64,000 bases of DNA from Pecten maximus (GCF_902652985.1 NC_047022.1:29140001-29204000); one strand, 5' to 3'. Counted from the stretch's first letter, positions 2,086 through 37,400 are shown. Notes: generated from the sequence alone by a model not told the origin. Numbers and translations: made by a program.

Positions 2086-2779
2086 CTACAGGCAAACTAG
2101 TAGTGCACTACGTCCAGTCAGGTGTGACCACAAATCCCCCTATACAAAGTAATGGATAGTTCCACTGGACACATGTACTTTAGATCCCTATAGTTGTTAC
2201 ATACATTTTGTATACAGACCTGTGTAAATTGACTGCCTTTTATCTGTCATCCTGACTTTACCAGGTATATTTAAAAGTTGATAAAATTTTATCTAATATT
2301 AACTCAAAATAAAATTGGCTACGGTTCTTATATGATATATTGCACAAGAGGAATTAAAACTCTATCAAAAGGATTTGTAGTGGGTTTTTTAACATTAATT
2401 TTTTCTTAAAGATTTCATTATAGTTTAAAATTAAGGTTTATCTTCTTGATTTCAGAATTTTGATGCTTTCATTAATTTTTTTAGATGTGATTAATATACA
2501 TTTTATATTAATGATTAATTCTACCTTAGACCTTGATGACTGTTTGTAGATTTGTTTCTCAAGTACACTGTATATGTACATACAGTATATTTTAATATTT
2601 ATTATTTTATCAGACAAGATTATTTTTAAATTCAATGTATTGTTACTTCACTAATATCTGTTAATTCAACCATGAAATCATTTCATAGTAAAGAATCAAG
2701 AATAAGAAGTTTTGTATATTCTCATTTATGTTCTGTAAGAGACATATAATATTGATCTACACAACAATTATATACCTGT

Positions 2780-4163
2780 ATGTTTAAACTAAATGGTAAA
2801 TTATCCGCCATGTTCGATTTGCATGTCGGATTATTGCAAGGAGAATCTTTATCCCCAATGCTCTGTTCTCTTTTTGTAAACGATATGGAAAGTCATTTTA
2901 TAAATTCTAATTGTCAAAGTTACTCATTACAGCTGATTAACCTCTTTATGTTAATGTACGCAGACGATACAGTCTTGTTTTCAGAGGACGTTACCGACCT
3001 CCAAAATATGCTTGATAGTTTACAGACTTATACTCTTAAATGGAACTTAAAAATAAACACAGATAAAACAAAAATTGTTGTTTTTAGGAAAAGAAAAAGA
3101 ATGCTACCCTCTGAAAACTGGACTTTTAATGGAAACCCTATAGAAATTGTCGATAAATTTTGTTACCTTGGCCTGATTTTTAACTTTAACGGTAGATTCA
3201 CTGCAGCATTAGATACTTTGGCTTGCCAAGGAAGAAAAGCATATTATCATTTAAAAAGAAAAATGAAAGTGTTCACCCTTAATATTGAAACGAAAATGTC
3301 TTTATTTGACACTTATGTTGCATGTGTTTTGAATTACGGATGTGAAGTATGGGGACAAGCTGTTTCACCACAAATTGAAAAAATTCATCTTCTTTTTCTC
3401 AAAGAATTACTTAATGTTAAGAAATCGGTAAATTCTTCTATGGTCTTCTTCGAATCTGGTAGATATTCATTGTATGTACAACGTAAAATAGCAGTAATGA
3501 AATATTGGCTGAAATTACTAAAAACCAATAATTGTGTTTTAAAATCATGTTATGACGCACTTGTCGAATTGAATAATAAAAAACCTAATTGTAAAAGTAA
3601 TTGGGTTTATCATATTAAAAATGAGCTTTGTAGTTTAGGTTTTGGTTATATTTGGAACAGCCAATACGTTTTAAATGAAAGTCATTTTATGCAAGTATAT
3701 GTCCAGCGTGTTCATGATGTATTTATTCAAGAATTACGCAGTGCGTTTGATATATCGTCGAAATGTTATTTATACAAACATATTGTGGATACCTTCAATA
3801 CTCAATTTTATCTTATTAAGCCAATTAATTATAAATTTAAAAAGTTATTGAGTCAATTCCGTATGCAAGGACACAGTCTAAATATTGAATCTGGGCGCTA
3901 CAATAAAATACCTAGAAGTCAAAGAGTTTGCACAGTTTGTGACAAAAATGATGTACGTCGAGGACGAAGTACATTTTGTGCTTCTTTGTCCTGCATATTC
4001 TGAACTAAGAAAAACATACATCAAAAAGTATTATTATTCTCGTCCAAGTGCTTATAAACTGATAGAATTATTTTCCAGTAAAAGTGTTAAAACTTTGAAT
4101 AGATTGGGTAAATTTTTGTTACATGCCACTGCAGAAAGAAAAACTCTCCTTGTAAGTAATTAA
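2780..4163 (+). pseudogene. LINE reverse transcriptase ORF2 remnant, frameshifted near 3953
   Basis: ORFs 2780-4003 and 3885-4163 join if the 4-bp insertion in GAT[GTAC]GTCGAGGAC is removed, giving KNDVEDEVHF. Endonuclease domain absent. Confidence 0.85.
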
Positions 4164-4503: not shown

Positions 4504-6808
4504 GTATAATTGGTACTCTCAGGACATGCCTGTTGTCCTGGCCACCTGGGCCCCAGGGCCCAAACCTCACCCCACCACCACCTTATGGACCTCCATAACA
4601 CCTTACCTATACTGTAAATTTGTGCCTGTTTTAACACCTGGCTATAGGTTTTGTCAAGTCCCCAATTACGCCCCCCCCCCCCCCCCCAAGGGTTCCATTT
4701 ATAACATGATGTGCCAGGCTCCTCTGCCTTACCTACCTGTAATTAACACTACCCATATATAATATCTACCTGTGGATGTTTTTCAAAATATTAAAGTTTT
4801 TTTTGTGAATCATCAAAAAATAATTAATTTCTATATACATTTTTCTTCACAATAAAGATATTCAATAAAGATATAGTTTATATGCTGATTTTCTTAAATT
4901 ACAAGAATAGGTAAAATCCCCATCAGTTATCTTTTTCAGGTAAAGAACAATTAATCATTTTCTTAATGCAATAGGGAAACACTTAAGTTCTGATCAAAAT
5001 GTATCCCAAAATTTTGTTTTTAAACAATATTGCAAAAAACATGTTAGCCTGCAATCATGCAGAGCTGTAAAAAATAAATTTTGGCTTAAGGTCCACATGA
5101 TGTACATGTGTATATAATATATTTGTTAGCAGCTGGTAACTTTTTAGAAGAAAATTATGAAATCAAAAATACAAGTGTTGTATAATTCAAGTGTTGTATG
5201 ACAAGTAAGCTCCAGATACATGAACATGTATGTGTGTTTGTTATATAAGCTTAAAATTAACTGTTGCCCTCCCCCGCCCCAAGTTTGCCAGTATATGTAT
5301 TTCATGACAAAAATGACATTAATTGTTCCCTCAGGCCATTATCTCATTCTGTGTTACCTGTAACTGATACAATTCATGTACCTGAAATAAGATCTAATAT
5401 GTTTAGATCTTCAAAGTATTAATTTAGATACCTGCACACAGGTACATGTACAGAAATTTCAATTATTTCAGTAAAGGATGATGGAAGGTGTATTACAAGT
5501 AACATATACCTTTTATAAACTTAAAATTTTGAAATGTAGAACTGTTAAGATCACTTAATTACCATAACATTCAAAGAATTTCTTTCTTTATGTGTTAAAT
5601 CAATGTTTAATTAATTTCTTTATGTATTCAATTTTCTGCCAGGCTTTAAGCATTGGATGTATACACAAAGAATGTACAACATATATTATTGGCTGAATTA
5701 GGTTTTAATAAGCATAATACTAAACGTATCACATCACAAATGAAATTAAGAATATGCTGCTTATAATTTAATATGAAATTAAACTACAATATAAATTAAA
5801 TGTATCAAATAGAAAATGTTCAAGTAACGATAATTGTTTCAAATGTTTTATTATATACTTTCATGTGATGAAAACAAAATTACTGGAATTAAACATGTGA
5901 AATATATAACTGATCAATCAATACAAAATATAAAGTACCAAAAGATAAATGAAACTTGGCTTGAACAATTTAACTTAATAGTTAAAGGATTTATAAAGTA
6001 AATCTGTCTTGATTTAGTTACAGCAGAGACATATATATGTCTCTGGTTACAGCTAGTGTATAATTAACAAGAATAGAAAGGTTGAAATATAACATCAAAC
6101 TAAACTTCCAAAACCTTTTTAATAACTATTTGAATATAACTGCTAGATAACCTTATATATACAGTACAGTTAAAAATCACAGGTAGCCTTGGGTAGTGCC
6201 CATTACGTCCTGTATGGGGGTTTTGAGCATGAATGAGCATCTTGGATTGCCATTAATACATGTACATTTTTGTACATGTATGTAACTAGAATTTTAGGTT
6301 GTTTGTGAGTATGTGGCTTTAAGCCCCTGGGGATGGACCTGTCCTGATAATCTTATCTAAGTTTGAATAATTTCCAACTGAATATAAACAAAATATAGAC
6401 AAAAGTATCATTTTCCTATATATAGGCTATATAGCTACAGTATTGAGATTAACCCTCTCACCAAGGGGATTTTGGTATAATATGCACCTTCTTTCTCTGA
6501 AGATCATTTGTTTCTATCATATCTGGAACTTGAGAAGAAGATTTATGAAATTTATGTCAATGTAACCCTTTTCAGCCCATAATACAGTCCCTGTGGGTCA
6601 TTGAAGGCTGTGCATACCATGCATCAAACTGTCATAGAATTTATTCTATCCAAGTTTAAATTATTTCTAGTGGAAATTAAACAAATTATGCTCAAAAATG
6701 AAATATCCCTAAATAATCTAGAGTAAAGTTTACCCCCTCCCCATGAGGGTCAAACACTGTCACCATTGATTACTGAATATGTGACCATGCAATGGATCTA
6801 TAGACCAG

Positions 6809-8186: not shown

Positions 8187-8688
8187 CAGGATCTGAACAG
8201 AACTCCGGACTCCAGTAGGCTGCTATAGCTTACTTAACCTTGACTGTTGATTGACCCAATTTTCTATTTGATTATTAGTAGTAAAAAGTGCTTATCTATA
8301 ATAGTGGCTTTAGTCCTATTCCTGTAGTGTGCTTTTTGCATAGCAAGCCTGCAGTTAAAGATCAGATTTACTGTACATTTATAGCGTCTGTCGTCCGGCG
8401 TCCGTCAGCATTTCCTTTAAATCCCTAGCTACTTGTCCTGAACGCCTGAATGGATTTTGATGAAATTTGGTCTGGAGCGTTATTGGGCAAAGGGGATCAA
8501 ACATTGTATAAATGGAGGGTGTGCCTCACCTGGGGCAGGTGGGACGGGGCCCAATAGGGGAAATTGAGTTAGGTCCTTTAAATCCCTACTAGTCCTGATC
8601 GCTTGAATGGATTTTGATGAAATTTAGTCTGGAGCATTATTGGGCAAAGGGGATCAAACGTTGTATAAATGGAGGATGTGGCTCCCTA

Positions 8689-11600
8689 GGTAGCACACCA
8701 CAGTAAGACAGCCTGGCCATGGGCAATTTTTTTGTTAAGCAAATAACTCCTGTATTATGATATGTATAAAAAATGAAAAAATAAATGTACACTATAATTG
8801 GTATATCCAGTATGAAGTAGTACATACAGGCTTCACATTTATTAAAACAAAAATCAATAAATTGGTTCCGGATTTTAAATATCCGGATTTTCCGAACGTG
8901 TGTTTACACAGGAAATTTAGTTTCGCCTACAGCGCAAAATGGAAGCCCACAGAAAAGGTAAGATAGCGGAAAAACTTAATTTACAACATATGTCCAAACA
9001 AGATTAATTCTGTCTTTGGGATAGAGATATTTAATTTTAAATAGGTTTCAGAAAAAAAATTGTGTAGAGAATTGTGCCATTTTGGGTCAAATATCATAAT
9101 ATTTTGCAATTTTTGAGAATTTTTTAAGCTGTTACCATGGTATTCACAGCTCTAAAAATCACAGAAAATATCAGTTTACTTATCCTTCAGAGCTCTATTA
9201 AAATTGCAAATGTTGTACAGATTTCAAATATATATACTTTATTAGAGGTTATATGTAAGGTTAACTGGCAATGTTTACATATCTAAAGCATGTGCCATAT
9301 TTTTCAGAATTTGGCATTTTTACTGTACACTGCTACCTTATAAGGGCTGAAAAATGTTATTTTTTGGAAATTGTGCTTAATTATGCTTGATTAAGCTTCA
9401 TTTTAGTTCATTATTGCTCAAAAATGCATAAAAACAATTTAAAACTTGTTTATTATCAGGCTTGTCATATTAGAGGAATCAAGGGAGGTAACTCGCATAT
9501 TTACCCATTTTAAGGGTGGGTTAATTAAGCATAATGTTAATGAGTCAGTGTAAATTGAAAAGATATTCTATGTTTTATAACAAACCCAAAATAACTTATT
9601 GGGTATCTAACAAACCATATAGACTGAATTCTGGTTTGTTTTACCTGATTTATTACCCCGTATCCATGGAAACTATTACAGTAAGTGTTATTTTTTGAAA
9701 TATTTGGTGAAACCATTATTTTCAATTTATTTATACATTGGTAAGCATGTAATTTCAATTGATGGAGTGTACGGTTGATACAATATTGTCAATTATTGTC
9801 ACTTCCTTCGGTAAAGCAGAAAAAATAGCATTTTCCGCATAAAATGGGATCAGCGGACACTTTCATATGATCATTGGTACATATCTGAATTACCGGGGTG
9901 GAAACAGATGACTGTGATGTCATAGGCATGACATTTTGAAATCTTGGATGTCATGTCATGATTTATCAGTTAGAATATTGCATGTGTTGCTAAGCTGAGG
10001 TTTGGAAAGGAATTTGGTTATTTATTATGACACCATTGAGTATTTATGACGTCATAGATACCATCTGATGACGTCATAGTTACTGATGACGTCATGGTAA
10101 CTATGACGTCATGTTACAAGGCTAAATTTGATAGTTGTATAGTATTTTTTGCTTGATTACATGCACAGAGACTCAAAGTAACACATTCAACTCAAAACAC
10201 AACTTTATTCAAGAGATATACAGAATTATGGGAGTTTTCATCTTTAAAATTACCTCCCCTTATTACTGGATTGAGAGAAAAAGTTGTCAAAATACACCTC
10301 TCAGGGAAATCAGCAATACTCGGTGACTATTAAAGATACACAGTAACCCGATATGTCATTTTGTTCGTCGGAACATATTCTAGACATTCATGGGGTTTTT
10401 AGTAAAATTAGAATTAACAAAAGTGATGTATAAGGTAGCACACCACAGTAAGACAGCCTGGCCATGGGCAATTTTTTTGTTAAGCAAATAACTCCTGTAT
10501 TATGATATGTATAAAAAATGAAAAAATAAATGTACACTATAATTGGTATATCCAGTATGAAGTAGTACAAACAGGCTTCACATTTATTAAAACAAAAATC
10601 AATAAATTGGTTCCGGATTTTAAATATCCGGATTTTCCGAACGTGTGTTTACACAGGAAATTTAGTTTCGCCTACAGCGCAAAATGGAAGCCCACAGAAA
10701 AGGTAAGATAGCGGAAAAACTTAATTTACAACATATGTCCAAACAAGATTAATTCTGTCTTTGGGATAGAGATATTTAATTTTAAATAGGTTTCAGAAAA
10801 AAAATTGTGTAGAGAATTGTGCCATTTTGGGTCAAATATCATAATATTTTGCAATTTTTGAGAATTTTTTAAGCTGTTACCATGGTATTCACAGCTCTAA
10901 AAATCACAGAAAATATCAGTTTACTTATCCTTCAGAGCTCTATTAAAATTGCAAATGTTGTACAGATTTCAAATATATATACTTTATTAGAGGTTATATG
11001 TAAGGTTAACTGGCAATGTTTACATATCTAAAGCATGTGCCATATTTTTCAGAATTTGGCATTTTTACTGTACACTGCTACCTTATAAGGGCTGAAAAAT
11101 GTTATTTTTTGGAAATTGTGCTTAATTATGCTTGATTAAGCTTCATTTTAGTTCATTATTGCTCAAAAATGCATAAAAACAATTTAAAACTTGTTTATTA
11201 TCAGGCTTGTCATATTAGAGGAATCAAGGGAGGTAACTCGCATATTTACCCATTTTAAGGGTGGGTTAATTAAGCATAATGTTAATGAGTCAGTGTAAAT
11301 TGAAAAGATATTCTATGTTTTATAACAAACCCAAAATAACTTATTGGGTATCTAACAAACCATATAGACTGAATTCTGGTTTGTTTTACCTGATTTATTA
11401 CCCCGTATCCATGGAAACTATTACAGTAAGTGTTATTTTTTGAAATATTTGGTGAAACCATTATTTTCAATTTATTTATACATTGGTAAGCATGTAATTT
11501 CAATTGATGGAGTGTACGGTTGATACAATATTGTCAATTATTGTCACTTCCTTCGGTAAAGCAGAAAAAATAGCATTTTCCGCATAAAATGGGATCAGCG

Positions 11601-12827
11601 GACACTTTCATATGATCATTGGTACATATCTGAATTACCGGGGTGGAAACAGATGACTGTGATGTCATAGGCATGACATTTTGAAATCTTGGATGTCATG
11701 TCATGATTTATCAGTTAGAATATTGCATGTGTTGCTAAGCTGAGGTTTGGAAAGGAATTTGGTTATTTATTATGACACCATTGAGTATTTATGACGTCAT
11801 AGATACCATCTGATGACGTCATAGTTACTGATGACGTCATGGTAACTATGACGTCATGTTACAAGGCTAAATTTGATAGTTGTATAGTATTTTTTGCTTG
11901 ATTACATGCACAGAGACTCAAAGTAACACATTCAACTCAAAACACAACTTTATTCAAGAGATATACAGAATTATGGGAGTTTTCATCTTTAAAATTACCT
12001 CCCCTTATTACTGGATTGAGAGAAAAAGTTGTCAAAATACACCTCTCAGGGAAATCAGCAATACTCGGTGACTATTAAAGATACACAGTAACCCGATATG
12101 TCATTTTGTTCGTCGGAACATATTCTAGACATTCATGGGGTTTTTAGTAAAATTAGAATTAACAAAAGTGATGTATAAGGTAGCACACCACAGTAAGACA
12201 GCCTGGCCATGGGCAATTTTTTTGTTAAGCAAATAACTCCTGTATTATGATATGTATAAAAAATGAAAAAATAAATGTACACTATAATTGGTATATCCAG
12301 TATGAAGTAGTACATACAGGCTTCACATTTATTAAAACAAAAATCAATAAATTGGTTCCGGATTTTAAATATCCGGATTTTCCGAACGTGTGTTTACACA
12401 GGAAATTTAGTTTCGCCTACAGCGCAAAATGGAAGCCCACAGAAAAGGTAAGATAGCGGAAAAACTTAATTTACAACATATGTCCAAACAAGATTAATTC
12501 TGTCTTTGGGATAGAGATATTTAATTTTAAATAGGTTTCAGAAAAAAAATTGTGTAGAGAATTGTGCCATTTTGGGTCAAATATCATAATATTTTGCAAT
12601 TTTTGAGAATTTTTTAAGCTGTTACCATGGTATTCACAGCTCTAAAAATCACAGAAAATATCAGTTTACTTATCCTTCAGAGCTCTATTAAAATTGCAAA
12701 TGTTGTACAGATTTCAAATATATATACTTTATTAGAGGTTATATGTAAGGTTAACTGGCAATGTTTACATATCTAAAGCATGTGCCATATTTTTCAGAAT
12801 TTGGCATTTTTACTGTACACTGCTACC
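8689..12827. mobile_element. Composite DNA-transposon-like insertion A-B-A-B-A (A=649 bp with TIRs, B=1096 bp), non-coding, KolobokP-like architecture
   Basis: A copies at 8689-9337, 10434-11082 and 12179-12827, each GGTAGCACACCACAGTAA...TTACTGTACACTGCTACC. B copies at 9338-10433 and 11083-12178. Period 1745 bp. Outer flanks GCTCC-CTA|...|CTA-GGGCCGG restore the host repeat unit. Confidence 0.9.
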
Positions 12828-13020
12828 CTAGGGCCGGAGGGACGGGGCCCAGTAGGGGAAATCTAGGTTAGTCCTTAAAATCTAGTTGTGCTGAACGCTT
12901 GAATGGATTTTGATGAAATTTAGTTTGGAGCATTATTGGGCATAGAGGATCAAATATTTTTTAAACGGAGGGTGTGGCTCCCCCGGGGCCGGAGGGGTGG
13001 GGCCCAGTAGGGGAAATTTA

Positions 13021-13480
13021 ACCCCTTTAGATCCCCACCCCATAACCATATATAGCATTGCTGGACATCAAGAGATAAACACAATCCTGTTATAGATATA
13101 GGCCCTGGTGTCTTTCCTCACCCCTAGGGACTTAATTTCTTTGATATATCTTTGAAACCATTGAGATCCCCACCCTACAACCATATATAGCATTGTTGGG
13201 CATAAAGAGATAAACACAATCATGATGTAAAAATTGGCCCTTGGGTCTTTCCCCACCCTAAGGGACTTAGCTTCTTTGATATATCTTTGAAACCATTGAT
13301 ATCCCCACCCTACAACCATGTATAGCATTGTTGGGCATAAAGCAGATAAACACAACCATGATGTAAAAATAGCCCCTTGGGTCTTTCCCCACCCCTAGTA
13401 TCTTAGTTTCGTGGTAATATTTTTTGAAATCGTTGAGATCCCAACCCTATAACCATATATAATATTGTTTGATATAAATA
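13021..13480. repeat. ~120-bp tandem repeat, about 4 copies, inside the Helentron-like element
   Basis: Recurring GATCCCCACCCTACAACCATATATAGCATTGTTGGGCATAAA...GGTCTTTCCCCACCC. Confidence 0.85.
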
Positions 13481-13791
13481 AATATAGGTATTAAGAAATA
13501 GAACATTAACATTTTTTTGAAGTTTGGTCATATCGAACCAGGTGAGCGTGACAGGCCCTATGGGCCTCTTGTTATTCAAATGTCAAACATTTCAAAATGC
13601 ACAAAAGTACATCATTGACTGAAACACATAATATTAAAATTTGAAGCACTTCAATACTTACAGGACATTATACAACTACATGTATTTTTTTTGTCAATAT
13701 TAAATCTAATGTATGTAAAATATGTCTGTGAATGTAACATCTGCAGAGCAACAATCAATATCATATGGTTCATACCAATCATGTCAATTTA

Positions 13792-13864
13792 AAATTTCAC
13801 AAGGTATAATATTATGGCTTTGTAAAATTTTTACAAAGCCATAATATTATACCTTGTGAAATTT
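13792..13864. repeat. Perfect palindrome with 36-bp arms and a 1-nt spacer
   Basis: AAATTTCACAAGGTATAATATTATGGCTTTGTAAAA-T-TTTTACAAAGCCATAATATTATACCTTGTGAAATTT. Confidence 0.95.
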
Positions 13865-15108: not shown

Positions 15109-16173
15109 GGGAAATTCCTGCTAATCTGATTTAGTAATGTGACCTATACTCTATACTTTTACACTATTCCCTCCTTCAAAAAGTCTTCGCCCCCAAAGAC
15201 AACCACAACCCAGGTTCTTTAGCTCCAAGGAAGCCTCTCAATCTCCTGTAGCTTTCACTTGGAGCGGTCAACAGCACCAAATCTGTAATAGGAAGGAGTA
15301 ATGAAAAATACCCTGCCAGTGGCGGGCTTTGAACTAGAACAGATTGGAAAAGCCTCCAAGAAAGTTGTTTTCGGGAAACATTCATCATCAGTTCCACTGC
15401 TGGTCTTTAGTAGTAATGCACTAGCTTCAGCTGGTGCCTCATTTTACTTCAAATTCTTGAAAATTAAAAGAAAACTTTCGAAATTATATCAATATTGAGT
15501 CTTGTTTTTTTCTATCCATAAAATGGAAGTAAATATAGCGAGACACAATGTCACATGAGCATATATCATTGCACCAGACTGATTGAACAGAGTAAAAATT
15601 AATCCAGAAATCAAGTGTAAAGGAAGGTACTTTGAGATATATTAAGCTGAATATGCAAATATACCTAAAGTGAGATTAACACATTACAGGCTGGTGAAAC
15701 TGATGGAACTACAGAAACTAGATTATCTTCTGTGTCCATCTCTTAACTATAAACATAGGCATACATTATCTCACTGGCTAGTTCCTTTTGCAAAATAACT
15801 TTGGAGGATTATACAGGTCACAATGCACATATATTAATGTACAAGTTACACAACATAATACTAACACATTAAAATAAAACATTGGAAAACGGTAACACTA
15901 TCATCAGTACAACATGCTATATCAGGAGTGGAAGTGCAACTGATGACCACTGATCACAATCAGTATAATTAAGGCATGCATTTTTAGCTGACGTTTTCCA
16001 CTCATTTAGTATTTGACATACTATTATTTAATGCATATATTGAAACTGAATAGGCTGGAATGTTTTCTTAGTACATGTATTGAGTTTATAAAATTCTTCT
16101 TTTGTTTTTCAGTTATTGCATGGATCAAGAGTTGGAAAAGAACCAGAACACATAGTAGCTAAGAAATGGTAAG

Positions 16174-19100
16174 ATGGAAGCAGGTGATCTTGTCAAAGTT
16201 AAGGCAGAACCAATTAATTTAGATACTGATGAACCTGATTATTTACCAAATAAAGATGAAAACATTGGGATACCTACAGAAAAAGAAGCAATACAGCAAC
16301 AAACAGATGAGGAGGTGCTGCCAGTTCAGTCTTTAACTCCTCCTTACTATACACAGAGCCACATTGTAGGAGGAAAGTGGGAAAAGCCAAAAGAAAAGAA
16401 ACAGTACAACTGTAAAACATGCAAGTTTAAGTTTACCAGTAAAGCATGGCTTATCAAACATGAAAAGATGCACGAGAGAATGGAGAACAAAGCTAAACTT
16501 TATAAATGTGAGATTTGTAGGAAGGAATTTTCTCAGAAGATAATCCATCATGACCATATGGCAGCCCATGCAGGACGAAGACCCTATGTATGTGATAGAT
16601 GTGGCATGGACTTCACATGGTACAGGGCATTTTACAGACACCAACAAAGTCACAAGACAGGTGGCAAGGGATTCTCCTGCCATCTATGTCGCAGAACATT
16701 CAACAGTAATTGGAACCTTTCTAGACATCTCAAAGTAATACATTTGTCAAAACAAACTTTCAGATGTGATATTTGTGAAGAACTGTTCGAAAAGAAAAAC
16801 TTGTACCAAATTCATATGAAAGCTCATCATAGAGAAGAAAAAAAGAAAAGGAAAATCATTGGTATCGTGAATGAAACGGTGAAGCAAAAGCATTTAAAAT
16901 TTTCAAAAGCCGTTCGCGCTATGATGCAGTCACAGTCTCAGAATAATAGTAAGCAAGCAAATAACCAAGGAAGTCTCGTGTCATTCGGTGATGAGATTGC
17001 AGCCTCCGAACTGATTGAAGAGATCACAGATATCTCGAAAGTAGAAGACACAAATGACACAAAATGTAATTCCTATGACGAAGACAGTAGTGTGCAAGTT
17101 CTACAAAAGTTAAATGAAGCTCCCAAAATAGACGATAACTCTGTTAATAAAACTGATGCCGATTTGGAAGACATCCAAGATCAGGGTATCAAATATAGTA
17201 TTGGAAAAACTAGCAAAAGTACCGCGAAATCGTCAGTGATAAGTAATCTTAAGCTAAGTCAACAACCATACGCATGTGGTATATGTGGGAAACGTGTATT
17301 CAATTTGGATGCTCACATGAGAATTCATAGTGGGGACAAACCATTCAGATGTTGCCTGTGTGATAAAGATTTTGCACAGCGGGAAGCACTAAAAATTCAT
17401 TACAGAAGCCATACAGGTGAGAAACCATTCATCTGCAACACTTGCGGAAAAGGTTTTGCAACCCGTGGCCTTCAGCAGGATCACGTTCGATCTCACAGAG
17501 GCGACAAGCCCTATCAATGTGATGCCTGTGACGCTAGATTTTCTTGGAGGTGTGCTCTAAGCAGACACAAACAACTTCATTCTACCGGACCAAAACCCCA
17601 CGCATGTTCTATATGTACTTTTGAATGCTGGAGAAAACATGATCTCACAAAACACGAAAAGACGCATTTGAATGATCGCTATTATAAATGTGATTTCATT
17701 AACTGCACAGCTTTTTTCTCGAACAAGAAACACTTAGTTAAACACAAAAAGGAACATAAGTGTTCTAACATGGACAAGACATCTCTTAACGGCAGAATGA
17801 TCAGGATGAAAACGGCTAAAGGTGCTGATGACACTGACAAATTTGAATCGGATGTTTTTCTCACTACTGACATAGTTGATATAAAACAGGAACCAACTGA
17901 GGAGTTAGTGGATGATGATCTCCATAATATGTCAGTCCCAAGTACAGCTAGTATGTATATAACCTCAAACGAAGGCCAAATGGAGACACTGGTGACTCAC
18001 AGAACAGATCCTGATTCCGGCAAGCTTCGCTATACCAAAGGAAAACGATTGCATTTGGATCGTGATTTACAACTTTTGTTAAACAAGAAACTTAATGAGA
18101 AGAAAACTGTCAAATCTCGAAACACCAAAGATGGGTTGTCTGGCAAAAATTTAAAATCAAAACTTGAAGGTGGAATGCATAATGAACCTACCAGGCAATC
18201 GTCAAAAAATCTTGGATTCGAAGGCTTAAAAAGGAAAAGCCAAGTGAACATTTCAATGGATAACGTGGTTGAAAATGATGGTAATCCTATGAAAGGCTTT
18301 GATAAATTTATGTCGAGCAGCAACATGGTCTGTTGTGAAGTTTGTGGCAAATCTTTGAACATCTCCTACTACCACATCCACGTGCGGAAACACATGGAAG
18401 AGATGGCTCATACATGTGAGATATGTAACAAGTCATTTTCGCGGAAAACTGACCTAGTGGTACACTCTAGGGTCCATACTAATATCAGACCGTTTAAATG
18501 CACTATTTGTCCAAAAGCTTTCAAAGTGAAAAGCTTATTAGAGGATCATATCAGATCGCACGATGGTATAAAACCGTATGTCTGTAGTCTATGTGATGCC
18601 TCGTTTGCATGGAGATGTGCACTTCATCGTCACGTTAAGACACATTCCATAAATAAACCATTCCAGTGTGATGTTTGCGGGAAAGATTTCCGTCGTCGGA
18701 GGGATTGGGTTTGTCACATGGAAAAGAAAACCTGTAAATTTGTGAAGTCAATCATCTATAAATGTAACGACTGTCAAGCTGTTTTTGCAAATCTGGAAAC
18801 ATTAGTGTATCACAACGAGAAATATCACAAAGAAACATCACTGACGACAGCGGATAAACCTCCTGAATCCCAGACGATCTTAAACTCTTCATCTGATAAA
18901 TTGAAAGAATTTTCATCACCAGAACCATATAGTGATGATATCGTGGATGAAGATACCTTACAAGAAGAAAACGACACAATTGATGAATTAAATGAATCAA
19001 TCCAAGCAAGAGAAAATGTAGCAACCTTCCAACAAACAAATACCAGAAAAGATGTAAACCCACCCAGTGATTCCGTCTTGTTACCGAACAACAAATATGA

Positions 19101-20022
19101 TGAAACTTATTCTGAAGAGGCAAGTGGAAATAAAACGGATATAACGCTGAGTGAAAACTTAAACAGTTTCATAAAGAAAGAAAGTATCGATAGCGATTCA
19201 ATGTTTATCTCGAGTGTTGTGAATTCTGCCGACTTAATGGAAGATTCCCGCAGTCCTTCCAACACACACAATGATACTCAAACCATTAGTCAACAAGATC
19301 CAGATCACGTTGATAAAACAACGCTTCCCTCGTCAAACTTTAGCGAGTTTTCTTTTACCACTTGGACTGGTGAGGATTTGCAAATTAAGCAGTCCAATGT
19401 GAATGGAGCTTCTAATGCTGGTGCTGTTGAAGACAAACTCAAATGCAAAATATGCAGTAGAAGCTTCGTCTCTTCCATAGGTCTAAAGGTTCACTTGCGA
19501 ATCCATTCGAAAGACGCGATGGACATATACGCTCTCCACTTTCGTCCAGATGAGATGATGACAAAATCAAAGAGGGAAAAGGAAGCTAGGAACTTAAGAT
19601 TCAAGTGCAAACTTTGTGATAAGACTTTTCCGTTCGCTAGTGGTTTGAGGATCCATATGATGGCACATTCTGGCAAACTTCCCTACAACTGTAAAACATG
19701 TGGGAAGAGATTTCCTTATTTAGAATCTGTGAAATCCCACATGCGTGTACATACGGGTGAGCGACCTTTCACCTGTGATGTATGTGGAAAATCTTTTGCA
19801 TATCGGCACAACCATGACGATCATTATAGGACACATACTGGTGACAAACCTTACAAATGTGACCGTTGTGATTCCGCATTTACGTGGAAGAGTGCTTTAC
19901 ACAGGCACCACAAGACACATAGTTTGGAGAGCTTGGAAGTGTGTACCATATGCAAGGCCAAATTCAAGAACGGAGGACAACTTGTGCGACATATGAACAG
20001 GTTTCACAGCAGTCTTGTATGA
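16174..20022 (+). CDS. C2H2 zinc-finger protein, 1282 aa, about 23 fingers in four clusters, single coding exon
   Basis: Long intact ORF with CxxC...HxxxH fingers and HTGEKP-type linkers. Splice acceptor TTTTTCAG at 16112 starts the exon. In-frame stops upstream fix the ATG. Confidence 0.97.
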   Translation: MEAGDLVKVKAEPINLDTDEPDYLPNKDENIGIPTEKEAIQQQTDEEVLPVQSLTPPYYTQSHIVGGKWEKPKEKKQYNCKTCKFKFTSKAWLIKHEKMHERMENKAKLYKCEICRKEFSQKIIHHDHMAAHAGRRPYVCDRCGMDFTWYRAFYRHQQSHKTGGKGFSCHLCRRTFNSNWNLSRHLKVIHLSKQTFRCDICEELFEKKNLYQIHMKAHHREEKKKRKIIGIVNETVKQKHLKFSKAVRAMMQSQSQNNSKQANNQGSLVSFGDEIAASELIEEITDISKVEDTNDTKCNSYDEDSSVQVLQKLNEAPKIDDNSVNKTDADLEDIQDQGIKYSIGKTSKSTAKSSVISNLKLSQQPYACGICGKRVFNLDAHMRIHSGDKPFRCCLCDKDFAQREALKIHYRSHTGEKPFICNTCGKGFATRGLQQDHVRSHRGDKPYQCDACDARFSWRCALSRHKQLHSTGPKPHACSICTFECWRKHDLTKHEKTHLNDRYYKCDFINCTAFFSNKKHLVKHKKEHKCSNMDKTSLNGRMIRMKTAKGADDTDKFESDVFLTTDIVDIKQEPTEELVDDDLHNMSVPSTASMYITSNEGQMETLVTHRTDPDSGKLRYTKGKRLHLDRDLQLLLNKKLNEKKTVKSRNTKDGLSGKNLKSKLEGGMHNEPTRQSSKNLGFEGLKRKSQVNISMDNVVENDGNPMKGFDKFMSSSNMVCCEVCGKSLNISYYHIHVRKHMEEMAHTCEICNKSFSRKTDLVVHSRVHTNIRPFKCTICPKAFKVKSLLEDHIRSHDGIKPYVCSLCDASFAWRCALHRHVKTHSINKPFQCDVCGKDFRRRRDWVCHMEKKTCKFVKSIIYKCNDCQAVFANLETLVYHNEKYHKETSLTTADKPPESQTILNSSSDKLKEFSSPEPYSDDIVDEDTLQEENDTIDELNESIQARENVATFQQTNTRKDVNPPSDSVLLPNNKYDETYSEEASGNKTDITLSENLNSFIKKESIDSDSMFISSVVNSADLMEDSRSPSNTHNDTQTISQQDPDHVDKTTLPSSNFSEFSFTTWTGEDLQIKQSNVNGASNAGAVEDKLKCKICSRSFVSSIGLKVHLRIHSKDAMDIYALHFRPDEMMTKSKREKEARNLRFKCKLCDKTFPFASGLRIHMMAHSGKLPYNCKTCGKRFPYLESVKSHMRVHTGERPFTCDVCGKSFAYRHNHDDHYRTHTGDKPYKCDRCDSAFTWKSALHRHHKTHSLESLEVCTICKAKFKNGGQLVRHMNRFHSSLV

Positions 20023-28400: not shown

Positions 28401-31400
28401 CTTTAAGAGCTGTCATTTAAAATGTCTAGTCTTGATAAAGTGCCAATAAAGTCATTTATCATGGCCATCATGTAGGGCAAGAACTGAAAGCCGACAAATA
28501 ACAAATTTCAGTGTTGTTATTTGGAATGTTTGCACCCTGGGAGCTTTGACGTATAAAACGAAAATATGATGTTGTGTTATAGTGTCAAAACAAAAAAGGC
28601 AAAAAACTGACCACAGCATATATAATATACATGTCATATACGAGCATGATAAAACAAATATGTTAACATGTTTGGAAGCCAGTCTTTGTTGTCGAATGTA
28701 TGAGATAAACATCCTATATATACTATATCTACTGAAGTTGAAGAAAAGGTTTCATCTAGAATTACGAAATAAGAATTGAAAAAATGTCAATCAGAAAAAA
28801 TGAATATTCTACTTATTCCGTTTTCGTTTACAATAATCCAAATGCTTTTCTTACCAAAAATCAAAACGATTTCTTATACATGCATTCCACACACTGGAAG
28901 ATGTTTTGTTTTTGTAGTCAATGGGGTATGTGAACACCACCGAGGAGCGACTTCTACAGTTCATGACGATCGTAATTAACAGTCAGTACTCACAGAATGA
29001 GATAGAGATTAGCGAAGGCAATATTGTGATAGCAACAATCAAGAGTAAAGGGGATGTATTGGACAAGATGGTAACTAAATATAGTAGCACGCTGGACATC
29101 CCTTACGTCAGACCGGACGCTGTCCAGTACAACGACCAGGAACTATTACTTTATGTACGTGTTATTGACGAATGTAATATAGGGTTTGTATCAGGTGTTA
29201 GGTGTGTACGTCTAGATTACATAGTGATGATTCATTAAATCTGTATGTGGCTGCGTTTCGAAAGTTGATGAAATGAACTCTTTAATAGTATGCATCGCAA
29301 TTATGTGAAATTATGTTTAAAGTATGTATTTTTTTTATGGTATAACGTTTACGTCCATCCGTCTGTCCGCCCTGTTAAAGTTCGAGTAAAAGCTTCTACA
29401 ATAATCTACAAATCATGTGTTATTATACTAATATTTGGAGATTTTAATTTTTCGGGAACCATGAATTTAATTTCTGGTAATTATTTCTATCCTTTTTTAA
29501 TATTTCTTATCCGTTTTGGATTTTGATTGCCAAGACCATGAATACTTTATATATATATATATATATAAATCTTTGGAGAGGGTCAGAAGGGCGTATTATG
29601 TATCCATTTCCGGTGTTCTCGTTTTTAATGGATAAGAATGTGGTATACTGCTTGTAGAGTCTAAATCCACACCCTTATAAGATACTGCTTTTTGTAAAAT
29701 AAGGATTCGTCATGATACATTTAGAACGCGTGTTGTTATAAGATAAGGTCATTACTTGCTGTATTTACTTATTAATTGACATCATTACAAAGGTATTTCA
29801 CATGAAGACATAATTAACAGAATAAATGTTTGGAATAAAGACTCATTATGTCCTTACTGATACATGTAAATTATTTGTACATTGTTATAGGTTCTTTCCT
29901 ACAACATCAATAAGTATACATACGTAGACAACCAACGCATGATCAACACGGGAACAACTCGTACGGTAATACGGGACAAAGATGGCGATTTCATTGACCT
30001 TTACAGTGGGGATGATCGACTTGAGGTACTGGATTGTATCCCTTTAAATTGTAAAATACTGTTTCAGTTTAACAGACACTTACCTTAAAATGCCAATTCA
30101 ATTAAGATATGTTGTTTATGTTTACGATTTGTTCTTAAATATCATATTAAGATGAAAACTAGCATAGTCTGTATTTTAATCGATAGGTATCGAAATGGAT
30201 TTGGTATAAACACATCCAGTACACAAACGAAGCATTAGCATATGCAAAATATACTGATATATTTTTCCATTTTCTAAAGTAATAGCGTAGATTTTGTACT
30301 TGTGCAATATCAGTTCATTATATTCAATATGTAAACGGTGTAAATGTATAGTACACAATAAGCAAAATAGCATATCACTTTGTAACCATACATAGTTTCA
30401 TGAAGTGTTCGTTATGACCAAAGTGCTGATGGCGTCTGGGCATCATATTGTTTTTTTTTTTTTTTTTTTTTGTGGATTCATGGGATAGAGTTTAAGTTAT
30501 TTGATCACCGTATCAGCAAACTATATCAATTCATCGTTACATGAAGAGTTTGGTAATGGAATTCACAAATCACTGTTTTCTTATGTTGTACCGGTAGATG
30601 GTGGTCGATGCAAACAACGTAATGAACGATCCGAGCTTTTGGGAGAACATAACTAACGTGAACAATAACAACGAATTCTTTCTGAATGCCTCCTTTCAAA
30701 ACAATGTGGACGGGGCGTTGATGAATGTTCGCATTAAGAGCATCATGCCGTGCGTGATGAAAGGATACGATGCAGATCTGAATGCCAGCATCGACAGCCA
30801 GACACCAGTGGTAGACCTACTGATTGACGGGGGCAGGGACCTCACCATCTTCGATAAACCTGCAAATTTGAAGATTGAGTATCGAGGGCAAGATCTATCG
30901 ATTACCTTCCTTCCACCTGACAGTAATCTGGATTCTATGATCTCACTCGACATGTATTTTCAATGCGAAGGTAATCCTTGTAATATTGTCAATTTTAAAT
31001 GCTACATTCATGCATGAGAGTGTTCGTCTTCAGATTTTTTAAAGCGATATAAGGGTGACTGAAACTGTGCCAATGGGTGTGTATGTGCATGGAGGTGGTA
31101 TCAAAAGTTATTTCACTTTGAAAATATTAACATAAGTAAATTATTCACTCTGTGTATCGAAATATCCCCTAAATTGTTATAGCAAATGCCACATTGGGAA
31201 GACATATAAGGGCTAACATATCAACTGACATCAAAGTTATATGCAATATCAATATGGAGCGTTAATAAGCTATATCATTAAAATATGGTATAATTTGTTC
31301 CAGTTTGTCTCGAGAGGGCGCAGATGTCGTTCATCATTGTGAAATCTGAACTCACCGAACAGGACGACTTCGACATAGCAATTAATTTTGTCAAAAAGAT

Positions 31401-34400
31401 GATCAGTGTTGTGAATAATACCCAGTTTTCTCTTCATACATTTGAAACGGTATTCCAAACAGTGTTTTCGTTTGGAGATGGCGTAACATCAGAGTCTCAA
31501 GTAAACAGTTATATTGGAGTGATTTCCACACCTTCCTCGAGTATATCAATTACCACAAGTATCTTGGGGACCACAACTACCGAAAGTGCGACAACCTCCA
31601 CAATCGACCCAAATGCAACGCTGGTCTTGGACCCTGTACGTATCGACACCGCACTGTACAATATGACGTCATACTTATCAACAAACGCTGACTGGTCAAA
31701 ACAGCAGATAGTTCTAGTGATAACAGACGGTCAGTTTGGTCTGAATGATAGTATGATTTACCCTGCACTTAACGGACTTCGCAGCATGAACGTCACCATA
31801 ATGGCTGCGGGTTACGGGTTAAAATCAAGAGATGATATCAAATCATTGGTTAACTTACCTACCAATTGGTACATATTCTGGCTCACCAGGGATCCGACAG
31901 CTGATATTGAAACAAGTGATTTAGAAGAGTTTATGAGCTCCTTCTGTTACGGTAAATATCCTAAATTGACATGTGCTTTTTGTTTAAACTTCATTTGATT
32001 TACATACCAAGTTCAATGGCATATCACTGTTTAACTTAGATCGCTTCCTGCTCTTGTATGTTAAATATAAAACGCATAGCTATACACTGGTAAATGTTTT
32101 TTTTCTTGAATTTGTCTGTACTAAAATATGTTTAAAGCTTTGCAAATACAACACATAGTATAACGACATGTACACGCATACAGTTATTTCAAATTCCATT
32201 AATGACATTGTAATTGCTGACAAATTAAATTTGCTTAAATAGCATTTCAAGACAAACAAATCGAATAGTAAGTTAAGAAACTAAAAGACAATTTGAGACA
32301 TTGTCAATACTATGATACAATTACAGACATTTCACGCATAATATTACTCGCTCTTCCCTTATTGCGTTGCTTAAAGTTTGCTTATATTGATACAAATGTA
32401 TATGTATCATACCCCGATGGAAACAGATGTAAGTAACTATATAAGATAAGGTAATGATATTTCTTCTGATTCGATATTTTGCAGGTTCTTATGGAAATCT
32501 GGCTTTTAATGCAGTACGATTTGGCCGTGTGTCAGCTCTTATGCTCAACGAGACGACCAATCGGTGGCATATCTCGGAAAACATCAAGGTGACTATTTAC
32601 CGCTATTCCTCTGGGGAGTGACATGATCACTGTAACATTCATGTCTGAATTAAATACGTAATATCGTTTACCCCCCCCCCTCCCCTCAAAAAATATATCA
32701 ATAGATAAATAAATAAATAAATAAATAATAATTAAAAAAAGAAAATCACTTGCTCTTACTCATTAAAATTCTTGATATTTGTAATTTATCCTAATTCCGT
32801 CTTCTGCCATTCTAACACTACTCTATCATGCTTAAACTACACCAAATATCACACATTATTCTAGCTACTTTTTCGTACATGTCTATAGTTATTTCTAGCC
32901 ATGAGCAATTATCTATTTTGTTTCTATCCGACTATCAGGTTGTTTTTTTCTCTTAATGGTATGACAAATCAAAATCTTGAAATCATATTGTATATAACGA
33001 AGAACTATGCCAACACTTAATTAAAACGCTTTGAAATATAGAGTTTTCCTTCGTAAAAGTTATTGGAATAGCTCTTACATTTATGAACAAAACAGTTTAT
33101 ATATGTCGCTATTATCTATTTTTTCTGTTTCAGATGAGTGATATATCCATGGCTTCCTCCACAGTGACGTTTAAAAGTAACTTTCTTGGCACGTTTGGTT
33201 CGAATGTGTTTGTAATCCCACCGGATGTGATAAACTTTGATACGCTTTTCGTTGACTTTGCCAGTAAGCTAGAGGACACGCCGTATGTTCTGGCAGTTAA
33301 TGTGGGATGCCTCAGTCTGATGGTTGTATTAATGATTTTCCTTAGATATTTCGACAGCAAGGATTTGTTAAAGGTCAGTATGGTTAGAATTCTGGATAGG
33401 TTCTGGTTTTGTAGCGTATATGTCAGCTGCTCATTTTGCATTTAAAACATTATTACTTTAAAAGAGTAATTCATTTTCGTCTGATCATTAACCCCAAAAT
33501 TATCCAGTGGTGTTTCTCATTTGCCTCTTTTGCTGAGCAGAAGACTGTACTGAATGGGTACAAATCTGAGTGTCGTTCAACAGAAGTTTATCTAAATAAG
33601 CGTCTTCGGCTGATACTAATGTATTACACACGCTTTTATTGCATTTTTGCCAGTGAAATATAGAGATTTATGAAACTAATAAAACTCATATTTTCACTGC
33701 AGCGATGAGCAGTGAAAATAAAAGAATTTGCAGCGAAAATATAAGTTTTGCAGTGAAAATATAAGTTTTCCGTTTTTGACCAGTCAGAGCGGACCTTTGT
33801 AGTCACCTCGTTGAAACTTGCCGATTTTGCCAATCGAAGCGGAGATAAATTGGTTATTTTGCTGTATTTTTGAAATATTCTGACCAGGTTTTGACTAAAT
33901 ACTCACTTGACGTTGGCTATTCATGCACAGATTCTCCTAAAACAGCAGAAAACGCTTAAATTGCGATGATCAGTCCTTTCAAAATGGTGCCGCCGTCAAG
34001 TTGACGTGGAGTAACGTCACACAGAGATGACGTCATTACTGATTCCCGCACTTTTTGATGCTATCGATTTTTCGATGTTTTTAATTTTTACTTTTAAGTT
34101 TATGAAATGCAATAAAAAGAAAATTGAATGGTTTCCCGTTTAATATAACATATATTTCACGAGTATGACAGAATATCGATATTTTCACGAGTGCGAAGCA
34201 TGACAAGAATATCGATATTCTGTCATACTCGTGAAATATATCTTATATTAAACGGGAAGCCATTCAATATCCTCTATATAAAACGAATTTTAAAGTTATT
34301 TCATTGTTATCCATATTTGAGTAGTAAATCTCACTGCGAATGTGCTTTTTTTAGAGACGGAATGAACGGAAAAAACAGATTTTGAATTTGGATGGACTTG

Positions 34401-37400
34401 CGTGTTGCACCCAACAAGTCTTTATACAAACCACTACACCCCATAAGTCGACCTTGGTCGTATGTCTGCCCATAACAACAAATCTGCTACGACCGCTATA
34501 TAAGTGTATTATATTTATACATATAAATTATACATTACACAAGATATTGATTTCGAATTAAACACAAGATTACGGATAAAATTGAAATGGGAGATTCTTT
34601 GGTTTATTCATAGGGTGCTACAATAAGCGGTTAGCGGTAAATTACACAACAGCTTATTTATTTGTCTCAACGCCTGTAAAAGCAACACTAATGATATTTT
34701 GCAATAACACTTGCGAAGAACATCTATCCTTTTACAATGTTTCGAGATATTAAAGCTGGTGAAGGCCACAGGAATTTTCTAAATATGACATCATGATCTC
34801 TTTTGAAAATAATCGATTTCCTTATGCGAAATGATGTCAGATGTGTTTGATGCTTGTTGGTATGCCAAGTACATCGTAGTCACCAATCTCATTTGCGACT
34901 GTGATTTAATCCGACATCGGCCTATATTCCTATGTTGTTTTTAATAATAGGTGTTGTCGTCGAAGCATGAAACGCTTACTCCGCTGGAGCACATTGTCTT
35001 TTTCTCCTCTTTCAGGAATTTCCACGAAAATGAGTATTTTTCTTTATATTTTGACCTCGTTTAATCGATTTTGGTTTCGGTATTATGTCAGTATTCCTCG
35101 TCTTTTTTTTTACAGTGGGAATACCTTCCTTTAAAGAACAATCCGCGCCAGGCTCGTTACTCGTACTATTTGTCTTTTTACACGGGGTTTTGGTCCAGTA
35201 GTCGCCTTTCGTCTACGGCATTTATCATACTCAAAGGCTCCAAAGGGATAACAGGGGCCAGAGCAGTCAAGGACGGGAAACGCAAGGTTAACACTAATAG
35301 TTATCTACTGAGCCGAATTGTTCAAAAGGTGACTAGCACAATCGCTTGATTAGTGAAAAAAAATCATTTTCCTTACTTCAAAACCTTTGTGTGCATCTTC
35401 CTTAAAAAACAGTGATTGACAAGTGTTATTTTTGTCAAGTTAGCATTACTAGAAACGATTTTATCAGGATTTCAAAAGCGTTGCTAAACCTTGATTAACC
35501 TTATCACCTTTTGAACAACCGGCCCTGAATTTTAGTGCTTCAGTACTTTTTATGTCTATGTGCCATTATGACAAACGTAATGTTGCCTATTCCACAAAGT
35601 TTTTATCTATATATAGATGTTTGAACGCTGGACGCTTGGCAACTTTTTGTTGACCACCGACCGAGAGCTAGGGCAACTATCGGAGATTAAAGTATGGCAT
35701 GATGAACAAGGGGACTCTCCCAGCTGGTACCTAGAAAAGGTGCTCGTCTATGATCAATTCAACGATGAAAAGTATGTTATTTCTATGTCAACTACTGTTT
35801 ACTACTTACTCTGAATCAAGCAAATACTCTTTTGCTAATTCTGTGGTATATGATATATTTGACACTAATTTCATTCTCAATTTATTCTCAAAGTTTACAT
35901 ATACATTGTATTGCGAATTAGTTATATTCTGACATTATATAGAGGTACGCGTGGAGTTTCAACTGATCTTGTTGTCCTAGGTACGCGTTCCTGTGTGGAC
36001 AATGGCTAGCCCCGGATAGGGACGACCGTAAAACAAGAAGAACGCTCTATGCTGCTAAGGCAGAACTGAAGGACGGCAGTATTTTGTTTGGAAGTAACAC
36101 AAGATTCAACCTGTTCGACGACTATCTTTGGCTTTCACTGCTTAGCAGGCCTTCAGCTAGCCGTTTTACAAGAGTTCAACGCTGTGTATGTGTGTTTTCC
36201 ATGCTGTTTTTATCCATGCTAGCGAATGCGATGTGGTACAGAACATCACAAGGAGTTCAGACTTATGGGATTCACCTTGGACCGTTCAGTCTCACCTACA
36301 AGAATATTTACGTTGGTTGTATGGCAAGTTTGGTGACATTTATTCCAGGATTTCTTATTGCGTGGATATTTAGGAACCGCAAAGTAAAAGTCGGCAAATC
36401 CTTTATGGAACAGAATACGAAGGAAGTGATGAATGAAGGTTTCTTACCTTGGTGGTTTATCTTCATTGGATATACCATAGCAATGATGTGTATGTCTTCT
36501 GGTGCAACCTTCACCTTTTTCTATAGTATTGAATGGGGTCGAGATACCACGCTCGAATGGCTAGGGTCTTTCACTTTCGGAACAATGCAGGGAATCATGT
36601 TCTTAGATCCACTCAAGGTTTGTAATATCTCATCAAAAGCAGCCTTAATAATGTTAGTATGTGTTATAACTTAACTAGTCATACTTTACACAGGCAGAAG
36701 TGCTGTCAACATTTCAAATCATCGCTAATCCAAAATCACCGTCGACAAATTTTAAGAAATTTTAAGTACGGATTGTTATGAATCATACATCAAATTAAGA
36801 ATAAGAAACTCATTTAATGTTAATCCAGAGGCAATTGAATAATGAGTAAAATCAGAAATTTGACAGAATAATGACTACATTTGAAGTTTTAAATTCCAGC
36901 CTTCAGGGCGGGGAAAGATGATTTTGTCTATAACAAAAAAAAAAGAGCATTGTGTGTGCTGAACATCACCTTGTATACATATGCACATATACATGCACAA
37001 ACATGTCAAACATCAGGCAAATGAGCCAATCAATATGACACGGTTTGATGATCTTGCGAGGTTGCTACATTTGGTTAAATGACCAAATATCTTATCCTCT
37101 CTGATTAGATATGTTAAGGTCTAAATAAGCTAGTTCATAATCAATTAATCTTCATTGTACTAATCATATTATCTAGAGGATAACAACTATTTTACCCCAA
37201 TATATTGTACATGTATATAGCGGTGACCTTTGTAGGTGGTATTTCTTACCTTGATGGTAGCATTTTTCTGCAAGAAATATGCCAAGAAAGATCTGGAATG
37301 TATGGCGCCGGTACTTGTGGAGAACGATGCATCTGAAGACAGAATTGAACAAGATGACGATTTCGTTGACGTTGACGGTATCTTTCTTATCTGTATCAGG

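Follow-up and report, generated by a model that had tools for sequence, protein, structure and literature searches.

The KolobokP kind of transposable element was described in 2022 (PMC9587614). According to the accessible part of that paper, its long terminal direct repeats (LTDRs) measure about 450 or about 660 bp and each bear their own terminal inverted repeat (TIR), about 11-18 bp long and perfect or imperfect; the termini follow 5'-RR..YY-3', and the target site duplication (TSD), which is not TTAA, comprises 3-4 or 4-5 bp and is found at the outer ends only. In Table S1 of the same source, families with LTDRs of about 650-660 bp mostly have a 3-bp TSD, and the long length class covers 647-688 bp. 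Solo LTDRs, multimers, junctions between two internal regions (INT-INT) with a micro-deletion, and non-autonomous families were all reported there, and the involvement of circles and the upkeep of the composite layout were left open. A 2026 review, in its accessible part, still describes the KolobokP model as unconfirmed (PMC13565253). In bacteria, copy-in cointegration by IS26/IS6 duplicates both the IS and the target, according to the available portion of PMC6952201.

The locus studied here lies in a stretch of 64,000 nucleotides of Pecten maximus (GCF_902652985.1 NC_047022.1:29140001-29204000), referred to below as the window, and its features are compiled in Table 1. We regard it as almost certain that the element is a non-autonomous KolobokP.

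Table 1. Features of the array and of the repeat that it interrupts, in window coordinates.
Feature	Position	Strand	Remarks
LTDR A1	8689..9337	-	649 bp, GG..CC, imperfect 18-bp TIR
Internal region B1 (INT)	9338..10433	-	1,096 bp, non-coding
LTDR A2, inner, common to both units	10434..11082	-	carries the 137A allele (window 10570)
Internal region B2	11083..12178	-	= B1
LTDR A3	12179..12827	-	= A1
Left TSD copy, CTA	8686..8688	.	3-bp rule, 43/47 insertions
Right TSD copy, CTA	12828..12830	.	
Interrupted host repeat, not part of the element	8429..13020	.	about 155-157-bp units, high-copy

Layout, target site and class of the array

The original prediction of an A-B-A-B-A layout, with 649-bp A units and 1,096-bp B units, was reproduced, as was its remark that A2 departs from the other A units by a sole substitution. 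Sequence comparison in the window demonstrated that A1 and A3, like B1 and B2, agree base for base, and that A2 differs from A1 and A3 only at A position 137 (T>A; window 8825 versus 10570), giving an (LTDR-INT)2-LTDR array with one difference over 4,139 bp. Identity at a period of 1745 sets in at 8688 and ends with the array, and the monomer length for this family is 2,394 bp. The inner junctions read TATAA-A-TTATA, inverted as had been predicted, and CTA is confined to the two outer ends. Each A unit carries its own TIR, again as expected, although this TIR is imperfect, with 14 of its 18 bases matching. In the B units, TTATAAGG..TATAA form the start and end of INT, and four TGACGTCA motifs lie within B710-774. 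No ORF longer than 88 aa (stop-to-stop) is present in the array, in line with the lack of coding capacity noted before. The array was assigned to the minus strand because the canonical orientation was judged from a coding sister element, L155.

The layout as such is confirmed as real. Contigs from an independent sample also contain a B-A junction (X5 loose end at 8691), and A and B are joined with differing TSDs at dozens of loci. An assembly or polishing artefact, with a unit collapsed or duplicated or the ends equalised by multi-mapping short reads, is most improbable. It would draw on the use of a single assembly, on the public contigs, none of which, among those listed, bridged the junction at the window locus with its repeats on both sides, and on one locus that is present twice around a gap on C3. 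It is opposed by the dozens of loci with distinct TSDs, by the junction in the independent sample, by near-terminal alleles being shared, and by inner copies that differ from matching outer ones.

When the array was excised in silico, the host repeat became collinear, as had been proposed, but the restoration is not exact, since the empty site falls short of each adjoining intact copy by 1 bp. Its best left and right matches are one base out of register both near 8531 (34/40 and 27/30) and at the second intact copy near 12984 (31/40 and 28/30). The duplication of CTA at the outermost ends alone was borne out as a 3-bp TSD. Among 47 complete insertions of the family, 43 have a 3-bp TSD, three have one of 4 bp and one has none, and all eight young solo A copies show 3 bp; the TSDs of the complete insertions are W-rich trimers (TTA 10, TAT 8, ATA 6, TAA 6; n=47). 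The alternative 5-bp reading, CCTAG, was rejected as a local accident, holding in 7/47 complete insertions versus 43/47 with GG..CC ends and an exact 3-bp TSD; it fits some insertions because C and G are favoured adjoining the target. The same test in 47 insertions led us to reject the 4-bp TTAA TSD of canonical Kolobok (Kol0), and it fixed the GG..CC placement of the termini, which fits the RR..YY rule.

The host element occupies 8429-8688 and 12831-13575 of the window. It contains repeats of 155-157 bp and of 135 bp, as well as a hairpin-like terminal motif near 13540-13575. Its repeats and terminal motif presumably resemble the Helitron-derived non-autonomous repeats of molluscs. Elsewhere in the window, a 36-bp perfect inverted repeat with a 1-nt loop lies at 13792-13864, and a single open frame of 1,287 aa, rich in C2H2 zinc fingers, runs from 16159 to 20022 (+), 3.3 kb from the insertion. 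A PKD1-like gene, whose exons carry VWA and polycystin domains, spans 31294-43571 (+), and a broken tyrosine-recombinase retroelement (RT, integrase and GDSL-like domains) and a LINE-type RT fragment were observed at 53757-57495 (-) and 2756-4003 (+).

Several observations place the element in KolobokP, a likeness that the original prediction had correctly suggested. INT stands between long terminal direct repeats, as A-B-A in 41/47 and A(BA)n in 6/47 insertions; the 649-bp LTDR falls in the long length class, each LTDR has a short TIR (14/18), the outer ends carry a TSD of 3-4 bp (46/47), and solos, multimers and INT-INT junctions (eight B-B matches) exist. The earlier doubt over a TSD unlike the TTAA of Kolobok falls away, given the 3-4 or 4-5 bp stated for KolobokP in the accessible part of PMC9587614. 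The closest published families are KolobokP-7N1/7N2/7N3_CorFlu (2,450-2,453 bp), KolobokP-N1_MyEd and KolobokP-N4_CGi, which Table S1 of that paper gives as non-autonomous with LTDRs of about 650-660 bp. They share with the window element the LTDR-INT-LTDR order, the LTDR length class, the short TIR, the 3-bp TSD and the lack of genes, as well as solos, multimers and INT-INT junctions, and differ in sequence, as 0 of 11 diagnostic motifs (15-16 nt, exact match) occurred in the accessible text of its four supplements. Judged by exact motifs alone, the window family is absent from the accessible part of that catalogue and the element uncatalogued there. The ends of KolobokP-7_MeMe, listed there as autonomous and coding (5,261 bp, 661-bp LTDR, 3-bp TSD), read GGTAGCAG..CTGCTACC and are near-identical to those of the window element in a comparison of the ends alone; its INT starts with TTAAGG and ends with TTAA, in contrast to the INT boundaries of the window element. 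In autonomous KolobokP, INT encodes a transposase and a nuclease, whereas the ORFs here are at most 88 aa. Kinship to a coding element with a DDE transposase and a downstream His-Me nuclease on the opposite strand is provided by L155.

LTR retrotransposons, including TRIM elements, are marked by TG..CA ends, a primer-binding site and a polypurine tract, and their long direct repeats are identical at birth and also give rise to solo repeats and to tandem arrays sharing one repeat. The window family resembles them in its long direct repeats, solos and arrays with a common repeat, and differs in its 3-bp TSD and DDE partner. This class was rejected, as the window element shows no TG..CA ends, primer-binding site or polypurine tract.

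The family in the G000 assembly and its coding relatives

Pattern searches of the G000 assembly, each with a reversed control that returned 0, found 1,159 exact A 3' ends, 356 exact A-B junctions, 194+165 exact B copies and eight exact B-B junctions. With A as the query there were 1,390 candidates, the best 40 of which were scored and were all 100% identical; B gave 599 candidates. The expected solo A, A-B-A and longer arrays are all present, since the fetched loci comprise solo A, A-B-A, A(BA)n, a 15-kb mixed array and B-B junctions. The micro-deletions or footprints at B-B junctions vary between cases, and these differing footprints show that LTDRs are cut out at the DNA level. Eight solos and many monomers at other loci are 100% identical in A, which, together with the one difference in 4,139 bp, agrees with the earlier view of a very recent insertion; at the level of sequence, the window dimer is supported as a very young one.

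Some loci are more complex. The 15-kb array at G000:C6:35039706-35054999 (L220, L221) has a TGA TSD and matching outer LTDRs, with inner A and B from several lineages and B-B junctions with unlike footprints. An unplaced contig (G000:C129:1-26305, L222-L224) is an array in which 15 or more A-B units carry shuffled A alleles, and one A haplotype of this array (155C, 236G, 281T) also occurs at both ends of the monomer L236. At G000:C15:4189440-4196433 (L031, L228), A-B-A is followed by three more whole or partial A among repeated TATAGGG flanks, possibly through local hopping or rearrangement. In L282 (G000:C6:13942386-13945926), A-B-A is nested in a B of another lineage, with a TAA duplication.

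The sister element L155 is situated on G000:C3391, and its locus occurs there and twice on C3576. Its LTDR (638 bp) is 77% identical to reverse A, with 28/30 in the first 30 nt; its INT opens with TTATAC, as does reverse B, and B687-923 is 66% like the stretch just upstream of its transposase. L155 encodes a PF20700 transposase (E 4e-37), with a CCHC finger after the first D and a CxxH motif, and downstream, on the opposite strand, a PF05551 nuclease (E 1e-9). A tRNA-like insertion splits the transposase and a 12-bp minisatellite lies between transposase and nuclease (L155:4165-4290 and 4570-5280). No 3' LTDR was found for L155, and, judging from its divergence, it is too distant to count as the proven mobiliser of the window family.

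The original prediction had expected an autonomous partner with a DDE transposase between A copies. The hunt in G000 covered PF20700 (114 matches), PF05551 (35 matches), 60 short loci and 40 wider stretches, followed by a second round with the L155 transposase and nuclease as queries in which the best candidates were scored. No autonomous element with an LTDR near-identical to A was found among these best-scored candidates; the nearest LTDR is the 77% identical one, and coding remnants adjoin only LTDRs 70-85% like A among the candidates scored. A Kolobok DDE transposase acting in trans is the likely mobiliser of the window element. Other KolobokP-like families, with LTDRs of about 455-465 bp, were seen at G000:C844, C27 and C14:21.80 Mb, and further such loci at C2:51.98, C9:19.22, C9:31.47, C10:1.19 and C17:5.98 Mb; their open transposase frames are long (667 and 682 aa), and one tandem array is located on C844.

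Alleles at the two ends of single copies

The allele sample consisted of all 77 A-B junction matches listed on C1-C5, equal to 64 loci; 17 of the 64 were excluded as truncated, nested or gapped, and the 47 complete insertions comprise 41 monomers, three dimers, two trimers and one tetramer. Substitutions alone were counted, indels being ignored, with a single assembly as the source. The left and right LTDRs of these insertions differ by a mean of 0.64 substitutions versus 5.9 between elements, and 0 of 10,000 permutations gave a left-right distance as low. Among 65 private alleles (present in one insertion only), 40 occur at both ends and 25 at one end; for alleles present in at least two elements, 110/115 element-level states are found at both ends, and four of the five exceptions are inside one mosaic dimer. 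Private both-end alleles extend up to 529 bp within one element, and A distances track B distances (Mantel r 0.72, 0/2,000 as high by chance). In a small autonomous family, two of five copies likewise have a private allele at both ends. These data show that the two ends of one copy have a common origin much more recent than plain cut-and-paste would permit.

We consider it probable that both LTDRs are copied from a single template at each jump. Of the private alleles present at both ends, 7 of 40 are no more than 60 bp away from a terminus, the closest at 20 bp, and they count in favour of a single template since crossover, conversion and short-read polishing should not equalise the ends there. 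Both-end alleles are not depleted near the termini; they are enriched there at a 100-bp cut (p 0.009), though not at 60 or 150 bp. No GC bias separated both-end from one-end alleles (p 0.75), and left-right distance showed no significant correlation with private B alleles, used as an age proxy (rho 0.18, p 0.21). A monomer at G000:C1:25720897, whose B equals the window B, counts against a single template: with unequal ends, a non-private 137A and a 4-bp TSD, it looks like the direct cut-out of a sub-unit.

In models a and c of PMC9587614, as published in its accessible part, A-B-A moves by cut-and-paste and its LTDRs are frequently homogenised in place by endonuclease-induced repair, conversion or unequal crossover; the window dimer would then have grown in place, with 137A a later mutation or conversion. 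The nuclease encoded by L155 and the ectopic exchange visible at L316 and L248 speak for such events. We nevertheless hold this explanation to be unlikely. Alleles situated 20-60 bp from a terminus are beyond the reach of transfer to the opposite end by crossover, yet they occur at both ends just as often as central alleles do, and one-end differences persist in older copies (seven in L260, four in L247). In a toy simulation with arbitrary parameters and 60 runs per model, the proportion of shared alleles found at both ends was 0.00 under plain cut-and-paste and 0.36 and 0.74 with conversion, the best run at very high conversion reaching 0.95; it was 0.96 with a single template, and 0.96 was observed. 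On average, 26-64% of shared alleles thus stayed confined to one end in the simulations with conversion, versus 4% observed, and plain cut-and-paste of the composite is disfavoured because it predicts almost no both-end alleles.

Reverse transcription of an RNA, with both repeats made from one template as in TRIM elements, would predict the same agreement of left with right and of outer with outer copies. It is very improbable for this family in view of the GG..CC ends, 18-bp TIR and 3-bp TSD, the lack of a TGG primer-binding start or clean polypurine tract in either orientation, the absence of a strand bias (A>G versus T>C, 10 versus 7), and the DDE transposase and nuclease encoded by L155.

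Multimers and a candidate route of insertion

From position lists, 21 complete multimers were tallied, which are not every multimer in G000. Outside the tally are the gapped or end-less arrays L225, L243 and L242/L322, the contigs C129, C1943, C2110, C2519 and C2651, and also L311, L312, L282 and C15:4.19 Mb. The outer LTDRs are identical in 12/21 multimers, and all LTDR copies in 7/21. In 5/21, the outer LTDRs have in common a rarer allele that is absent from an inner copy, a state that crossover cannot yield. In 3/21, a variant is common to one outer copy and inner copies, and this counts against a single template because unequal crossover predicts an outer copy siding with inner ones. Among single loci, the trimer L321 (G000:C14:16855565-16861448) argues most strongly that a multi-unit circle was inserted, and crossover likewise cannot explain it: A1 equals A4, A2 and A3 are nested sister haplotypes, and the B units show a nesting parallel to that of the inner A, the inner series being older.

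The original prediction had left two origins for the window array, namely insertion as a multimer or expansion of A-B-A by recombination between A copies. Multimer insertion fits better than simple expansion by A1/A3 crossover, since after a crossover the inner A should show the state common to both outer copies, and since 137A is also present at two other loci (G000:C1:25722642 and C13:36748311), one of them a monomer with B identical to the window B.

A further published alternative, models b1 and b2 in the accessible part of PMC9587614, has LTDR-INT circles re-enter solo LTDRs or monomers already in place, in a targeted manner, and so build monomers and arrays. The array at C6:35.04 Mb, a B/A lineage mosaic between matching outer ends, and L247, with two B units 20 substitutions apart, are in keeping with it, and re-entry probably contributes to mosaic arrays such as that on C6. 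As the main route it is improbable: reciprocal hybrid ends and reassortment of A with B would be expected, but the ends match and A tracks B; the window B units, moreover, are identical and have three rare alleles in common. The routes set out in the accessible part of PMC9587614 (crossover, circle re-entry and nuclease-induced repair) explain some arrays, but not the near-terminal sharing or L321.

Based on this evidence, we lean towards the window dimer being a gene-less KolobokP inserted in one step from an LTDR-INT circle, with duplication of the active LTDR. Recombination between two LTDRs would release an (LTDR-INT)n circle and leave a solo LTDR behind. Within the circle, the transposase would act on the two TIRs of one LTDR and join it replicatively to the target, in an IS26-like copy-in; alternatively, LTDR(-INT-LTDR)n would be cut from a rolling-circle copy of the circle. 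The outer LTDRs would then be copies of one template and the inner ones passengers, so that a two-unit circle with one 137T and one 137A unit would give the T-A-T pattern of the window. Unequal crossover, ectopic exchange and LTDR excision clearly act as well, at a later stage. The copy-in route is put forward tentatively and the rolling-circle route is doubtful, the data not separating the two; no circle or other intermediate was observed.

In this putative route, as described for IS26/IS6 in the available portion of PMC6952201, an element on a circle would be duplicated in direct orientation around a passenger, with the TSD at the outer ends. IS26/IS6 differ in being bacterial, in encoding their own transposase within the IS and in their 8-bp TSD, whereas the flanking unit here is non-coding. 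From the population pattern of alleles, we infer that both flanking copies stem from one template, as in IS26-type insertion. KolobokP may conceivably represent a DDE transposon of eukaryotes whose movement is replicative, by cointegrate-type copy-in from an LTDR-INT circle, with both ends re-made from one template at each jump.

The element belongs to a known kind, and the left-right identity is new as far as the literature was searched: it is not analysed in the accessible part of PMC9587614, and no report of the pattern was found in the literature covered, which lay outside subscription journals and Repbase Reports. The main interest is therefore not the element itself, but the family-wide allele pattern (about 360 B copies and about 1,160 A ends). 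If copy-in holds true, it would explain the persistence of the composite layout in KolobokP, and left-right LTDR divergence could date insertions as with LTRs.
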